This document shows positions 53,483-57,411 of a stretch of 64,000 nt of DNA, one piece after another. The stretch is taken from assembly GCA_036272915.1 (NCBI GenBank), contig DATAXV010000112.1, positions 22,510-86,509 on the forward strand, given 5' to 3'. The notes beneath the pieces are model-generated. The model saw nothing but the letters and a program-made list of their open reading frames with translations. It was not told the DNA's origin and searched no databases. Source of the stretch: Candidatus Dormiibacterota bacterium (GTDB taxonomy: Bacteria > Chloroflexota > Dormibacteria > Dormibacterales > Dormibacteraceae). A program made the translations under genes and the position numbers. Within the stretch, counting starts at the first letter, position 1, and each line of letters starts with the position of its first letter.

Positions 53483-54385
53483 TCAGACCGGAGAGAGCTC
53501 ACCAACCCGAGCCTCGGTCAGCGCGGCGCGAATCTCGTCCCGCAGTCCCGGCCCCGCGGGCTGAAGCGGACGCCGAGGATAGCCGACCGCGCGGCCCTGG
53601 AGATTGATCGCGCATTTCAGACGGGTGGTCATGTCCGGCCGGTCCAGCACCCGCCAAACCGGAAGCAGGCGCTCGTGCAGGTCAAGCGCGGTGGTCAGGT
53701 CCTGAGCCTGGCACGCGTCCCAGAGTTTGACCGATAGCCCAGGCGCCACGCTCAGAATGCCGGCCACGGCGCCGTGCGCCCCGAGGAGATAGGACGCGTG
53801 TAGAAGGGCGTCGACAGCGCTCAGAACCCTCAGCCCGCTTCCGGTCTTACGAACGGCTCGCAGGAGGTCGGCGAGCTTGTGAATGTCGCCTCCACTCTGC
53901 TTGACGGCCACGACCCATTGCAGATCTGCGAGCCGAATCAGGGTCTCCGGCATGATGGTGTTCCAGGGCACGACGTTGTAGATGACGATCGGGAGGCGGA
54001 CGGCCTCTCCGATCTCCTCGTAGTAGCCGATGGTTCCCTCGACATCAGGCGCGAACAGGTAGTGGACCGGTGTGATCTGCAAACCGTCCACACCGGCGTC
54101 TTTCAGCGCTTTCCCGTACCGGATCACGGCCCTCGTCGAGTCCTGGATGATCCCGCTCACCACCGGGACCCGGCCCCCGGCCTCCTCGACGGCGATCCTG
54201 GCCAACTGGAGCGATTCCGCCTCGGTCAGGGTGTGGCCCTCACCCGTGCTACCGCTGACCGTCAAACCGTGAACACCCGCGTCCAGGCAGTACCGCACCT
54301 CGTCACGGAACGCCCCCTCATCGATGTCCTCGTTGCGGTCGAACGGCGTCACGAGTGGTGGAATCACGCCCTTCAGATCCAGCAT
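53483..54385 (-). CDS. dihydrodipicolinate synthase / N-acetylneuraminate lyase family (DapA-like) aldolase
   Basis: Start at MLDLKGVIPPLVTPF (ATG 54385, GGAGG 8 nt upstream). Motifs GSTGEG, IVIYNVP and the Schiff-base Lys in VAVKQSGGD. Confidence 0.8.
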   Translation of the reverse strand: MLDLKGVIPPLVTPFDRNEDIDEGAFRDEVRYCLDAGVHGLTVSGSTGEGHTLTEAESLQLARIAVEEAGGRVPVVSGIIQDSTRAVIRYGKALKDAGVDGLQITPVHYLFAPDVEGTIGYYEEIGEAVRLPIVIYNVVPWNTIMPETLIRLADLQWVVAVKQSGGDIHKLADLLRAVRKTGSGLRVLSAVDALLHASYLLGAHGAVAGILSVAPGLSVKLWDACQAQDLTTALDLHERLLPVWRVLDRPDMTTRLKCAINLQGRAVGYPRRPLQPAGPGLRDEIRAALTEARVGELSPV

Positions 54386-54553
54386 TTCGAGTACCTCCGT
54401 CGATCGGGTGGCCATATCTGCGACGCGTACGCGTATTGCCGCTCCCGGAGCTGATCCGAGGAAGGCCTGAGTCCCTTCTGGCGGCGGCGAGGATACGCCT
54501 GTGTTGAGCATAGCCAACGACGACTGGGGAGCGATCCGGCCCTGAGCCGACCG

Positions 54554-55744
54554 TCATGGCAGGCGCCTCCGGAGCTCGGCGATCAGGGCCTCGACGCCCA
54601 TCTCACGCTGCTCGTCGCCCAGCCGCACGGCGAGCGTGTCGCTGGCCTGCTCCCGGTCGCCCATCACCGCCACGCAGGGGACGCGCCGCTCGGCCGCCGC
54701 CCGGATCTGTGCCGGCAGGCGCTCGCTTCCGTCACCGACCTCGACTCGGAAGCCCACCTCCCGGAGACGGGAGGCGGCGCTCCGGGCCGCCCCCACGTGC
54801 CGGCCCGCGATCGGCGCGACCGCCACCTGCACCGGCGCCAGGAAGAGCGGCAGCCACCCCCGCGTCTCCTCCAGCAGGAGGCCGAGGAAGCGTTCGAAGG
54901 AACCGGCGATGGCGCGATGGATGACGACCGGCGCCTCCCGCGCGCCCCGCTCGTTGACATACGCGCAGCCGAAGCGTTGGGGCATGAACTGGTCGATCTG
55001 GAGCGTGCCCGTCTGCCAGGGCCGGCCCTGGCCGTCGCGCATCAGGATGTCGAGCTTGGGCGCGTAGAAGGCACCCTCCCCCTCGACCACCTCGTAGCCG
55101 CCGGGCGCGATCTGATCGACGATGCAGCGCAGCAGCTCCGTCGACCGCCTCCATTCGGCGTCGTCGCCGATGTGGTCCCTGGGCGCCGTCCCCAGGCGCA
55201 GCTCGAACTCGAGGCCGAAGAGCCGGTACAGCCCGCGCGCGAACTCGAGGACCCGGCCGAACTCCTCCTCCACCTGGGACGGGGCCACGAAGATGTGCGT
55301 GTCGTCCTGGCGGAGGCTCTGCACCCGGAAGAGACCGGACAGCACGCCGGAGAGCTCGTTCCGGTGAAGGACATCCTCGCAGAACCAGCGAAGGGGGAGC
55401 TCGCGATAGCTGTGAGGTCGGGAGGCGAAGAGCAGCATCGAGCAGGGGCAGTTGCTCGGCTTGATGCCGAATCGCCGGTCGCCGGCTGTCGCGAAGAACA
55501 TCGACTCCTCGTAGTGGGGGACGTGGCCGGACGTCTCGTACACGGAGACGTCGGCCAGCTGCGGGGTGGAGATCTCCTGGTAGCCGTTTCGGAGGTGCTC
55601 GCGCAGGAAGTACTCGCGGAGCGCCCGGATCACGGTCATCCCCCGCGGCAGCCAGTAGGCCATGCCCGGGGAGGTGGCCTCGAAGTGAGCAAGGTCCAGC
55701 TCCTGCAGCCAGTGACGGTGGTTGACCTCCTGGTCGGCATCCAT
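54554..55744 (-). CDS. threonyl-tRNA synthetase paralogue lacking the N-terminal TGS and editing domains (catalytic core plus anticodon-binding domain only)
   Basis: Begins at the start of the class II core: HRHWLQELDLAHFEATSPGMAYWLPRG. Motifs KPSNCPC, YRELPLR, HRNELSGVLSGLFRVQSLRQDDTHIF, GAFYAPKLD, QTGTLQIDQFMPQRF and VIHRAIAGSFERF. The Zn-ligand positions Cys/His/His are conserved. Confidence 0.85.
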   Translation of the reverse strand: MDADQEVNHRHWLQELDLAHFEATSPGMAYWLPRGMTVIRALREYFLREHLRNGYQEISTPQLADVSVYETSGHVPHYEESMFFATAGDRRFGIKPSNCPCSMLLFASRPHSYRELPLRWFCEDVLHRNELSGVLSGLFRVQSLRQDDTHIFVAPSQVEEEFGRVLEFARGLYRLFGLEFELRLGTAPRDHIGDDAEWRRSTELLRCIVDQIAPGGYEVVEGEGAFYAPKLDILMRDGQGRPWQTGTLQIDQFMPQRFGCAYVNERGAREAPVVIHRAIAGSFERFLGLLLEETRGWLPLFLAPVQVAVAPIAGRHVGAARSAASRLREVGFRVEVGDGSERLPAQIRAAAERRVPCVAVMGDREQASDTLAVRLGDEQREMGVEALIAELRRRLP

Positions 55745-55764
55745 GTCGAATCTCCTCAGAAATG

Positions 55765-55795
55765 AAAAAAGCCCCCGCCCTGTTCGGGCGGGGGC
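55765..55795 (-). terminator. rho-independent terminator 20 nt upstream of the ThrRS-like start codon
   Basis: On the minus strand, GCCCCCGCCC-GAACA-GGGCGGGGGC is a perfect 10-bp stem followed by TTTTTT. Then comes CATTTCTGAGGAGATTCGAC and the ATG. Confidence 0.85.
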
Positions 55796-55810
55796 TTCCT
55801 GGCTCCTTCG

Positions 55811-55903
55811 CTAGCCTGCAGGCGGTGCGTGCAGGCGCGAGCAGCTTGCCCCCACGGCAGTGGTCGTAGTGAAGGAGCTGAACCGGACCACGTGCTGTCG
55901 CAT
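55811..55903 (-). CDS. candidate Thr-rich leader peptide (30 aa)
   Basis: MRQHVVRFSSFTTTTAVGASCSRLHAPPAG, with ACT ACG ACC ACT at 55870..55859. Its stop is 15 nt before the terminator 5' arm. The SD is weak (AAGG). Confidence 0.45.
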   Translation of the reverse strand: MRQHVVRFSSFTTTTAVGASCSRLHAPPAG

Positions 55904-56004
55904 CGCCTTGCCCGGCATTGTGCCATGGATCGTCCCCCGCCGCCGATCCCTCCGTCGAGGGCGGCTCCACAGTGAGCCCGGCCGCCGGAGGAGGCGGGCG
56001 GAGG

Positions 56005-57411
56005 TCACTCGCCGGCAGCCTCGACCGGAGCGGGCGCAGGCCTGGGGGCGATCCGGCGGAGCACGTAGTAGAGGACCGCGGCGACGGCGAAACCGACGTA
56101 GAAGGCGATGTCGGCGCCGTGCAGCGCGCTCGCCACCGGTCCGACCACGATCGACGTGTTCATGAAGGGGACCATGGCGCCGAAGCCGACGACGAAGGCG
56201 ACCAGCGCCGGCCAGCCGCTGGCCAGGTTGCGGAAGGCCAGCGCCGAGCGCAGGAGGGAGGGGCGGTAGCGGCCCCGGCTGTAGAGCCAGTCGATCATCA
56301 CCACCGCGCTGAAGGGCGAGAGCCAGTAGCCGACGAAGAGCAGGACGTTCTCGAAGCGCGTCGAGGTGTCGCCTCCATTGATCCACATGATCGCGGCGAA
56401 GGCCACGACCACCACCGCGGCCGAGATCAGGGGCCGCTTGACCCGCGCGCCCAGGGTCTGGAGGGCAAGGGCGCCGGAGTAGTCGTTCATCGCCGAGGAG
56501 ACGATCGAGGCGAACATGATCGCCACCAGGGCCAGCCCGCTGAGCAGCCCGCCGCCCATCAGCGAGCTCACGCCGGCCGCCGTCTGGTTGGCGACGATGC
56601 TGGCCGCGGCGAGACCGATGGTCATCACCCACACATAGGAGAGGACCATGCCCGCCATGGTGTAGCCGAAGACACCCAGCGTCGAGGAGCTCGGCTTCAT
56701 GTAGCGGCTGTAGTCGGAGGCGTAGGAGGCCCAGGAGATTGCCCCGGAGAGGGCGACCGTCACCATCAGGACGAAGGCCCCGATCAGGGCGCCGCCGCTG
56801 ACGGTGTCGTGGGGCAGCGCGACGTGGTGCTGGAAGATCCGCACGGTGAGGACCAGGAAGAGGGCGATCATGACCAGCGCGCCCCACTTCTCGACCTGGT
56901 GGACCAGCTCGTAGCCGTAGATGCTGATGACACCCTCGCAGGCGAGCACGAGCAGCGCGCCCGCCCAGAAGGGGATGTGGAGGAGGAGGTGGGCGGCCTG
57001 GGCCCCGAAGAGCGCGGTGAGCGCTATCCAGCCGATGGTCGAGAACCACTGCACCACCGCCGGCAGCACCACCGACTTGCCGAACGGCATTCGCGCCAGC
57101 GGGAGCTGCCCGGTGCCGGTCTTCGGCCCCCAGGTGCAGAGGATCGCCACCGGCAGGGTCCCGAGCACGATGCCCAGGACGATGGCGACCAGGCCGAGCC
57201 CGAAGCCAAGCCCGAAGGTCACGGCGAGGGTGCCGATGAAGATCCCGGAGATCTCCATGTTGGGCGTGAACCATACGGTGAACATCCGCCAGATGCCGCC
57301 ATAGCGGCTGTCCTCGGGAATCGGCGCCATCCCCTGCGTCTCGAGGACGGTGTCGCCGGTCCGGGCCGGCCGCGCCCCCTCGTAGGCGGTGAGCTCGTCG
57401 GCGGCGCTCAC
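56005..57411 (-). CDS. NCS1 (purine-cytosine / CytX-like) permease
   Basis: Start placed at GTG 57411, overlapping the tenA-like stop as GTGA. 468 aa, 12-TMS pattern, with the WFTPNMEISG and SDYSRY motifs. The upstream part of the 644-aa track ORF is not supported. Confidence 0.85.
   Translation of the reverse strand: MSAADELTAYEGARPARTGDTVLETQGMAPIPEDSRYGGIWRMFTVWFTPNMEISGIFIGTLAVTFGLGFGLGLVAIVLGIVLGTLPVAILCTWGPKTGTGQLPLARMPFGKSVVLPAVVQWFSTIGWIALTALFGAQAAHLLLHIPFWAGALLVLACEGVISIYGYELVHQVEKWGALVMIALFLVLTVRIFQHHVALPHDTVSGGALIGAFVLMVTVALSGAISWASYASDYSRYMKPSSSTLGVFGYTMAGMVLSYVWVMTIGLAAASIVANQTAAGVSSLMGGGLLSGLALVAIMFASIVSSAMNDYSGALALQTLGARVKRPLISAAVVVVAFAAIMWINGGDTSTRFENVLLFVGYWLSPFSAVVMIDWLYSRGRYRPSLLRSALAFRNLASGWPALVAFVVGFGAMVPFMNTSIVVGPVASALHGADIAFYVGFAVAAVLYYVLRRIAPRPAPAPVEAAGE

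Follow-up and report, generated by a model that had tools for sequence, protein, structure and literature searches.

A candidate threonine-codon attenuator upstream of a truncated threonyl-tRNA synthetase gene in Dormibacterota

The stretch of DNA analysed here, referred to as the window, consists of 64,000 nucleotides of contig DATAXV010000112.1 from a Candidatus Dormiibacterota bacterium. On its minus strand, a 260-nt spacer is flanked by the gene for an NCS1-type permease, whose stop codon ends at 56005, and by a gene related to those for threonyl-tRNA synthetase (ThrRS), and it is this spacer and its candidate threonine-sensing attenuator that concern us. Read base by base, the spacer contains an open reading frame (ORF) of 30 codons followed by TAG (55903..55811), with the product MRQHVVRFSSFTTTTAVGASCSRLHAPPAG and four Thr codons in tandem. 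The ORF is followed, 15 nt after its stop codon, by the core of an intrinsic terminator. A terminator scan gave the hairpin 15 pairs, 10 of them G-C, with A-U pairs lengthening the stem to 55800, and its energy is -31.1 kcal/mol. The ThrRS-like gene starts with an ATG at 55744, and the 20 nt between the U-tract and this ATG carry its Shine-Dalgarno (SD) sequence. A preliminary description, made from the letters of this stretch, had placed exactly the 30-codon leader with its four Thr codons, the perfect terminator with its U6 tail and the 20-nt gap with its GAGGAG, which it took to leave no room for a promoter; a gap of about 20–35 nt is kept in relatives.

The window is 71% G+C, and in a scan of both strands of the 64 kb for a T-rich tail preceded by a hairpin with 8 bp or more, of which 6 or more had to be G-C, the leader terminator was the only site returned; it is the sole strong intrinsic terminator in the window. 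The 260-nt spacer folds with a z-score of -4.3 relative to dinucleotide shuffles. Together, the unique hairpin, this z-score and the recurrence of the arrangement at 15 further loci show that the combination of leader and terminator is more than chance. As an observation on the source organism, it seems to be sparing with canonical intrinsic terminators, and the leader terminator stands out against that background.

Related loci were collected by starting from a protein search, which yielded a family of ThrRS proteins of about 390–410 amino acids, 50–88% identical to that of the window. The DNA of these relatives was obtained by exact-protein look-ups, by an alignment-based scan of species-representative genomes and by a metagenome scan. 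The resulting set comprises 16 distinct loci (the window, L001, L004–L010, L086, L166–L168, L171, L172 and L174), and the ThrRS proteins of the 15 loci other than the window are 51–88% identical to the window's. Five family loci came from the alignment-based scan of species-representative genomes, four of them in Dormibacterota metagenome-assembled genomes (MAGs) and one in a MAG labelled Terriglobales; the same scan also supplied 75 canonical full-length thrS loci, which were taken as controls. No relative was returned when species-representative genomes were scanned with the single window protein, and one family locus, L086, was found among the matches listed from the metagenome scan, which were mostly canonical ThrRS. 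The presence of family members in only five species-representative genomes, in a search limited by its pattern, is a patchiness that would fit an accessory gene.

All 16 loci have an equivalent leader ORF of 26–30 codons with an ATG or GTG start, bearing out the leader ORF of the preliminary description. About one third of the way into each ORF lie three to five consecutive ACN codons. Across the three Thr codons that can be aligned in the 16 leaders, A and C are invariant and the third position varies (ACU, ACC, ACG), which is the signature of selection for codon identity. Each leader also has a run of at least five G residues (GGCGGG in L007) beginning 3–6 nt after the last Thr codon, and a distance of 15–17 nt between the stop codon and the terminator core. 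Across the leaders the core reads (G/A)CCCCCGCCC ... GGGCGGGGG(C/U), the loop being variable and the tail U-rich, and the terminators of all 16 leaders have energies of -28 to -41 kcal/mol. The U-tract is separated from the ThrRS start codon by about 20–35 nt, and this gap carries the SD sequence (GGAGG-like motifs); judged from the lack of space, a promoter between the U-tract and the ThrRS gene is probably absent. Outside the window's clade, 12 of the 13 loci have a TANNNT hexamer 6–7 nt 5′ of the leader ATG or GTG, which points to leaderless leader mRNAs in those loci, of the kind described for leader peptides of Streptomyces (PMC8079986). The flanking genes vary from locus to locus, some of those upstream being encoded on the other strand. 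From this comparison the terminator is part of the leader and does not close an upstream gene or operon, and leader and ThrRS gene form a self-contained unit.

The peptide itself behaves differently from the RNA. Apart from the Thr run, the sole feature common to all 16 peptides, and positions that are explained by RNA pairing, it is not conserved between clades. This bears on the idea that the ORF is an independent micro-gene with a constitutive terminator, the ThrRS gene being expressed only through unregulated leakage past that terminator, or from a promoter that overlaps it and has escaped recognition. Such an arrangement would agree with the fact that no promoter was identified computationally anywhere in the spacer, and with a terminator that is far more stable than any alternative fold. 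The lack of peptide conservation argues against it, however, as do the constant position of the G-run, the invariant terminator core and the gap of about 20–35 nt, which is taken up by the SD sequence, and we consider it very unlikely. A precursor of a ribosomally synthesized and post-translationally modified peptide, or a functional micropeptide, was also considered, and was dropped because the peptide is not kept between clades beyond the Thr run and the RNA-paired positions.

The combination of features is specific to this family. Each family locus, the 64-kb window among them, contains a single instance of the terminator motif, which is absent from 154 other thrS loci. When a covariance model was made from the 16 leaders and run on 17 family loci (the 16 together with L170, a near-identical copy of the L007 leader), the scores were 93–130 bits, as against 17 bits for the best non-family thrS locus among the controls. 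The sole additional match of any weight was to L167:74-209, a decayed duplicate scoring 45.5 bits. In the consensus structure computed with RNAalifold, and in explicit pair counts, covariation is seen in a hairpin that ends just before the stop codon (hairpin H), where one pair is C-G in eight leaders and G-C in eight and another is U-A in 11 and C-G in three, with 97.5% of cells in the hairpin paired. The lower stem of the terminator covaries as well, A-U, G-C and G-U pairs being interchanged. For the structure as a whole the covariation score was 0.229 compared with 0.135 in shuffles, none of 500 of which scored as high, and sliding the partners by 1–3 columns lowered the pairing from 89% to 41–61%. 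The nine pairs of the terminator core are invariant in all 16 leaders, which fits a three-way constraint imposed by the G-run, the 5′ arm and the 3′ arm. A stem involving the start codon (P1) is predicted in each clade from differing sequences: GUGAGCGCC with GGCGCUCGC, GUGAGCA with UGCUCGC, AUGAGUGCAGC with GCUGCUCAU and, in the window, GCGACAGC with GCUGCUCGC. Support from alignment columns is moderate for P1 and for the hairpin formed by the G-run and C-run (65–79% of cells paired), in part because the window's clade aligns differently.

A leader as highly structured as this one (z = -4.3), with covarying helices, might in principle sense its ligand through RNA alone, the ORF being incidental. 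It could then be a riboswitch, or a T-box-like or otherwise tRNA-binding leader with ACC or ACU as the specifier, and ThrRS genes are indeed controlled by T-boxes in Firmicutes. No Rfam family matched the window at its gathering threshold; for the T-box, there was no match at the gathering threshold in the window and none at E-values up to 10 in the region. The best relevant Rfam match was to RF00506 (Thr_leader), with 23.5 bits against a cut-off of 55 and E = 0.043 in a search of 601 nt, and it was due mainly to the terminator; the present element is therefore not a member of RF00506. The frame is intact in all 16 leaders, with three to five tandem Thr codons and 15–17 nt from stop codon to terminator, and the start codon is at a fixed distance from a -10-like box. 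Conservation of start codon, frame and stop spacing argues for a translated leader and not a specifier loop, and we regard an RNA-only sensor as extremely unlikely.

Folding of the window leader gave several pairings. In the predicted fold of the untranslated nascent RNA, the start-proximal strand GCGACAGC of P1 pairs with GCUGCUCGC, which aligns with GGCGCUCGC, the partner of GUGAGCGCC in another clade. In the minimum free energy fold, GCUCCUUC, just upstream of the Thr codons, pairs with GAAGGAGC in the spacer downstream of the stop codon, and in L004 this pairing is preserved by a compensatory change, as GCUUCUUC with GAAGAAGC. According to the model, GCUCCUUC would fall inside the footprint of a ribosome stalled at the Thr codons. 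The G-run, GUGGGGGC, is complementary to GCCCCCGC in the terminator 5′ arm and so would form an antiterminator.

The loop of hairpin H (55821..55830, minus strand) corresponds to 13 alignment columns (76–88) and is of constant length. In most leaders (10/16, as read from the alignment) it contains CCGCC, a pentamer that is also present in the terminator 5′ arm, and this loop sequence could act as a decoy by pairing with GGCGG of the 3′ arm in a pseudoknot. The same CCGCC encodes the Pro-Pro of a C-terminal Pro-Pro-Ala-(Arg/Gly)-stop, and constraints on RNA and on peptide are inseparable there.

The effect of a ribosome on these pairings was modelled by holding 28 nt single-stranded, from -15 to +12 nt around the first base of the A site. 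The transcript was ended with the terminator 5′ arm, before the 3′ arm is made, and the pairing probability of the C-run in the 5′ arm was taken as the measure. With the A site on the first Thr codon, the C-run was paired with a probability of at least 0.86 in 14 of the 16 leaders, through the G-run, while flanking bases paired with the spacer. When the ribosome was placed on the third or fourth Thr codon, the probability was lower in most leaders. With the ribosome at the stop codon, where the mask covers the spacer, C-run pairing fell in most leaders, the exceptions being L007 (0.99) and L008 (0.84), in which it was maintained by pairings spanning the ribosome mask. The energy of sequestration of the 5′ arm was -7.7 to -15.6 kcal/mol, with a mean z-score of -2.5 relative to dinucleotide shuffles of the upstream part, and in 13 of the 16 leaders at most 7 of 200 shuffles gave sequestration as strong. 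The untranslated nascent RNA formed a domain closed by P1, in which the G-run was paired with a probability of 0.65–0.99 in 13 leaders and of 0.42–0.56 in the window's clade.

An architecture of this kind, as the masked folds indicate, would answer any stall at the right place, and PPA(R/G)-stop is the C-terminus of 10 of the 16 peptides, PP plus two residues and a stop that of 11. The element might thus be a translation-dependent attenuator of the ermC or upstream-ORF type, responding to general translation stress or to ribosome-targeting drugs by stalling at the C-terminal Pro-Pro-Ala-(Arg/Gly)-stop or elsewhere. Against this, Pro-Pro is absent from five of the 16 leaders, and a stall at the end of the ORF covers the spacer and so favours termination and not read-through. 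The Thr run alone is universal in the 16 peptides and is conserved in codon type, and the target gene encodes a ThrRS. We think a general sensor of this sort unlikely.

By contrast, we consider it highly probable, on the comparative evidence and the modelled folds, that the element is a ribosome-mediated, leader-peptide transcription attenuator that senses charged tRNA-Thr and gates the truncated ThrRS gene; leader translation, coupling of transcription to translation in this phylum, termination and read-through, and specificity for threonine are what we infer in proposing it. A short transcript would start just 5′ of the leader start codon, or exactly at the start codon in most relatives. If no ribosome loads, the 5′ end including the start codon would pair with the segment that follows the G-run, which would lock up the G-run and let the very stable terminator form. 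If threonyl-tRNA is plentiful, the ribosome would reach the stop codon, 15 nt before the terminator core, and cover the spacer; this would part the G-run from the 5′ arm, the terminator would form and transcription would end at the U-tract. If threonyl-tRNA is scarce, the ribosome would stall with the first or second Thr codon in the A site, masking the upstream partner strands and leaving the G-run free. The free G-run, with its flanks pairing to the spacer, would then capture the C-run of the 5′ arm while the 3′ arm has yet to be transcribed, and RNA polymerase would read through into the ThrRS gene. Judged by sequence comparison and modelling, the element appears to have every computationally testable property of the leader-peptide attenuator class.

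Much of the preliminary description is upheld by these results. Its proposal of a Thr-sensing attenuator before the ThrRS-like gene gains support from the comparative and folding evidence, and its antiterminator, GUGGGGGC with GCCCCCGC, is predicted by folds with a ribosome on the first Thr codons. A second pairing that it put forward, of CAGCU-CCUUC with GGGGG-CA-AGCUG, is missing from the predicted folds: AGCUG is instead taken up by P1, opposite the start-proximal GCGACAGC, and the partner of GCUCCUUC is GAAGGAGC. Two checks that it named came out in part. Covariation among homologous leaders was found in hairpin H and in the lower terminator stem and not in the antiterminator core, which is invariant; alternative-structure folding gave three attenuator states when the ribosome mask was applied, and at equilibrium gave the terminator in every case.

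Several points weigh against the attenuator proposed here. In equilibrium folds of the full leader the terminator (-28 to -41 kcal/mol) wins in every case, so that such folds do not discriminate between the states; the decision to read through must therefore be kinetic, as in other attenuators. The G-run starts only 3–6 nt past the last Thr codon and would be covered by a ribosome stalled on Thr codon 3 or 4. Because the G-run is so near the Thr run, only stalls on the first two Thr codons would antiterminate, and in the model the geometry of antitermination is thus tighter than in textbook leaders. The G5:C5 core of the antiterminator is invariant, occurs in three registers between clades and can slip, which precludes a covariation test; the lower stem of the antiterminator is clade-specific, and the antiterminator was judged by masked folding of each sequence and by shuffles in place of column covariation. 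The shuffle statistics make the 16 sequences seem more independent than they are, since these are related. The anatomy is weakest at the start of the leader in the window's clade, where promoter and SD sequence appear weak or ambiguous: a strict sigma-70 consensus scan of the 260-nt spacer found no promoter, and the SD sequence is poor, an AAGG only 2 nt 5′ of the ATG. The candidate -10 hexamer, CACAAT, is kept in both of the closest relatives, L001 and L004. Positions of all these features are collected in Table 1.

Table 1. Positions of the leader, terminator and downstream genes in the window
Feature	Position	Strand	Basis
CACAAT, candidate -10 hexamer of the leader transcript, 13 nt 5′ of the leader ATG	55917..55922	-	inferred
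Leader start codon, ATG	55903..55901	-	sequence
Stem P1, 5′ strand GCGACAGC, overlapping the G of the start codon; partner 55845..55837	55894..55901	-	fold of untranslated nascent RNA
GCUCCUUC, directly 5′ of the Thr codons; pairs with GAAGGAGC (55809..55802, 3′ of the stop codon)	55871..55878	-	minimum free energy fold
Thr codons ACU ACG ACC ACU, four in tandem, proposed sensing codons	55870..55859	-	sequence
G-run GUGGGGGC, antiterminator 5′ strand, complementary to GCCCCCGC of the terminator 5′ arm	55855..55848	-	sequence and folds
Stem P1, 3′ strand GCUGCUCGC	55837..55845	-	fold of untranslated nascent RNA
Hairpin H: GCCUGC, 11-nt loop, GCAGGC; ends 1 nt before the stop codon	55814..55836	-	RNAalifold consensus
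Leader stop codon, TAG	55813..55811	-	sequence
Spacer of 15 nt from stop codon to terminator core, holding GAAGGAGC (55809..55802) and GCCAGG	55796..55810	-	sequence
Intrinsic terminator, extended stem (element 55765..55800)	55800..55766	-	terminator scan
Terminator 5′ arm GCCCCCGCCC	55795..55786	-	sequence
Terminator 3′ arm GGGCGGGGGC, preceded by loop GAACA	55780..55771	-	sequence
Terminator U-tract, U6	55770..55765	-	sequence
Shine-Dalgarno sequence GAGGAG of the ThrRS-like gene	55757..55752	-	sequence
Truncated ThrRS gene, 396 amino acids	54554..55744	-	Pfam PF00587 and PF03129 only
DHDPS-family gene, 36 nt downstream of the ThrRS gene	53483..54517	-	Pfam PF00701

The protein encoded downstream of the leader consists, by Pfam matches, of a class II catalytic core and an anticodon-binding domain, without a TGS or an editing domain. 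Its sequence is that of HEX4214102.1, a protein of a Candidatus Dormibacteraeota MAG, and there is no second ThrRS elsewhere in the 64-kb window. The Cys, His and His positions that we take to be the zinc ligands are retained, as read from the alignment. The protein aligns with residues 243–630 of E. coli ThrRS and so corresponds to the crystallised, N-terminally truncated E. coli enzyme; residues 242–642 of the latter make up the laboratory construct 'ΔN-ThrRS' (PMC11252418).

Retention of the anticodon-binding domain would allow a further mode of control. In E. coli, ThrRS represses its own mRNA through mimics of the anticodon arm, and the enzyme encoded in the window might likewise bind a tRNA-like element in its own leader, either alone or besides attenuation. 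The conserved helices of the leader do not favour this: no conserved hairpin with an NGU anticodon-like loop was seen, the loops of the conserved hairpins being variable or C-rich, and the SD sequence and start codon of the ThrRS gene lie outside every conserved helix. We accord protein feedback of this type very little probability indeed.

Attenuation of aminoacyl-tRNA synthetase (aaRS) genes has precedents. Classical attenuators are on record or have been predicted at pheST in gamma-proteobacteria, at Streptomyces trpS and leuS (PMC1262725) and at hisS paralogues in bacilli (PMC2965389). The latter source, which also mentions the autogenous control of E. coli thrS, stated in 2010 that demonstrated cases of leader-peptide attenuation were confined to Proteobacteria and Actinobacteria and that Firmicutes offered candidates. 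Like the present element, the leaders of E. coli pheST (pheM) and of Streptomyces trpS and leuS act on an aaRS gene and not on a biosynthetic operon. They differ in amino acid and lineage, whereas the present element precedes a ThrRS without an editing domain, and its leader ORF is seemingly leaderless in most relatives, with the start codon in a stem. A close parallel in design is the auxiliary, indolmycin-resistant trpRS1 of S. coelicolor, for which attenuation is experimental (Vecchione & Sello 2010, as cited in PMC4787780). Like the present element, it has a leader peptide with cognate codons and a terminator, in a high-GC soil bacterium; it acts on a second aaRS gene and is induced when tRNA charging fails. 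It differs in concerning Trp, a class I TrpRS and Actinomycetota, and has no sequence relationship to the present element.

For threonine, the preliminary description had supposed a Thr leader on a ThrRS gene to be undescribed, which was too strong, since a candidate before thrS has been annotated in S. lividans. An RNA-seq-based reannotation of that organism listed leaderless leader peptides before leuS, trpS, alaS and thrS, and proposed thrL of strain TK24, with the product MKRVRPFLETTPGFVPAR, two Thr codons and no clear terminator, as an attenuator (PMC8079986). Both that leader and the present one are short ORFs with Thr codons directly upstream of a ThrRS gene, and both are leaderless, the present one seemingly so in most relatives; S. 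lividans thrL has two Thr codons compared with 3–5 in tandem here, lacks a clear terminator where the present element has a textbook one, and has no sequence similarity to it. The gene that follows it is called thrS and is described only as a threonine-tRNA ligase, with truncation not mentioned. The enterobacterial thrL (RF00506) follows the same logic as the present element: Thr codons stand in tandem, hairpins alternate and the terminator, rich in G+C, ends in a U-tract. Unlike it, thrL controls threonine biosynthesis (thrABC), responds to Ile codons as well and starts from an SD sequence. Another parallel is provided by the mycobacterial attenuators with leaderless short polycysteine ORFs (bioRxiv 10.1101/834739), in which a run of codons for a single amino acid likewise tunes downstream genes. 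These sense Cys, with a different mechanism and different targets, and related cys leaders are without obvious terminators (PMC1262725). From the literature found, the present element, with 16 loci, fixed geometry and covarying helices, thus appears to be the best-supported Thr-codon attenuator on a ThrRS gene.

The residues of the enzyme suggest what such control might be for. In alignments with PDB sequences, residue 228 of the window ThrRS is Ala at the position of E. coli Gly463 (GAFYAPK), and residue 254 is Met at the position of Leu489 (QFMPQRF). With either substitution, G463A or G463S, E. coli ThrRS becomes resistant to both obafluorin and borrelidin, and ObaO, the ThrRS that gives immunity to obafluorin, has Ser and Met at the Gly463 and Leu489 positions; L489M alone gives no resistance in the E. 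coli enzyme (PMC11252418). Mutations of L489 raise the Ki for borrelidin 300- to 1,000-fold, and the enzyme of the borrelidin producer has Thr there (PMC4389257). We surveyed both positions in the 120 best homologues, 48 of which are short and 72 full-length. Ala463 was present in 26 of the 48 short proteins and in a single one of the 72 full-length proteins; Met489 is not peculiar to the short proteins, being common in the full-length group as well (24/72). The canonical pair of Gly and Leu was found in only two short proteins. One of these, P0062 (L175:411-1640, 409 amino acids), was rejected as a family member, as it derives from a split or frameshifted canonical ThrRS gene: an ORF upstream of it, L175:2-391, has a match to the tRNA_SAD editing domain, and the two genes are separated by a 19-nt gap.

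These residues are suggestive of a drug-insensitive auxiliary ThrRS that is induced when charging of tRNA-Thr fails. A further reading, which we regard as possible and rather doubtful, is that leader and gene together form a self-inducing resistance module, in which an editing-less ThrRS that is insensitive to natural inhibitors of the obafluorin or borrelidin type would stay switched off by means of the attenuator for as long as the housekeeping ThrRS works and threonine suffices. Poisoning of the housekeeping enzyme or a shortage of threonine would leave uncharged tRNA-Thr, which would stall the leader ribosome and turn the gene on; Thr leaders on thrS genes would then be a widespread class of aaRS control.

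Short ORFs with runs of Thr codons also precede other ThrRS genes. At 12 of 134 canonical full-length thrS loci, most of them from Patescibacteria, an ORF with at least three consecutive Thr codons lies no more than 320 nt upstream. In L039 (Paceibacterota, about 1000–1340) the peptide MNKQFALTTTTAL, ending at a stop codon, is followed by GGAGGGGUU ... GACCCCGC-CAA-GCGGGGU-U7, and in L108 the peptide MKIHFNSNCTTTTPF, likewise ending at a stop codon, is followed by GGAGGG ... CCCUCC-GAAA-GGAGGGC-U6. By sequence, these two look like classical Thr attenuators. L089 encodes MRFITTTSRTTTTTCN followed by a stop codon. In a further five loci (L011, L012, L024, L037 and L074) the Thr run is followed directly by a hairpin with a C-rich and a G-rich arm and the stop codon in the loop, of the form CCCC...GGGG in four of the five; four of these loci are labelled Saccharibacteria or Saccharimonadales, and L012 only as Patescibacteria group. 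Thr-codon leaders on thrS may thus be widespread.

A number of other features were seen at these loci. In the window's clade (the window, L001 and L004) a palindromic motif, GGCACAATGCC, at 55914..55924 on the minus strand overlaps the candidate -10 hexamer. A partial copy, CACAATGCCG, lies within CCACAATGCCGG at L005:841-850, about 80 nt upstream of the leader start codon, and L005 also has its own TACACT box adjoining the start codon. The motif might bind a protein or act as a second promoter element. The 100 nt that follow the permease stop codon (55904..56004, minus strand) form a long G+C-rich stem, CCUCCGCCCGCCUCCUCCGG ... GGAGGGAUCGGCGGCGGGGG, with no U-tract. This stem is not kept in relatives; it may mark where the transcript from upstream has its 3′ end, or make that end more stable. 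The decayed duplicate in L167 (L167:38-360, plus strand) lies about 2.8 kb upstream of the real leader and joins part of a leader to a 5′ fragment of a ThrRS gene. Its -10 box has changed from TAGCCT to CAGCCT, its start codon from GTG to GTC and one Thr codon to ATG, and the terminator, the SD sequence and the first ThrRS codons are deleted.

The genes upstream of the spacer on the same strand encode a CofC-like protein, an F420 ligase, a TenA-family protein and the permease. Downstream of the ThrRS gene, a pattern scan found no terminator-like site before the DHDPS-family gene. The latter is absent from this position in the related loci, and is possibly co-transcribed with the ThrRS gene in this genome only. 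In L008, L009, L168, L171 and L172, and partly in L174, the unit lies directly downstream of genes for a pyridoxal phosphate (PLP)-dependent enzyme of Cys/Met metabolism, an 80-amino-acid protein, a PALP (CysM-like) enzyme and a JAB/Mec-like protein; to judge by these sequences, the upstream genes of that clade read as a CysO-type cysteine synthesis cluster.

The attenuator proposed here would extend leader-peptide attenuation to Dormibacterota, an uncultured soil phylum that is, to our knowledge, known from metagenomes only. As a compact element of 140 nt, it could provide a sensor of threonine charging for high-GC hosts. Induction at times of threonyl-tRNA scarcity of a ThrRS without the editing domain that clears Ser-tRNA-Thr would raise questions of fidelity under stress. 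If the resistance reading is correct, the module would be the ThrRS counterpart of the Streptomyces TrpRS1/indolmycin system, spread through an uncultured soil phylum, and Thr-codon leaders upstream of thrS, including those in Patescibacteria, would represent a widespread and unrecognised class of aaRS control. The truncated ThrRS may then be an inducible resistance determinant in soil communities.

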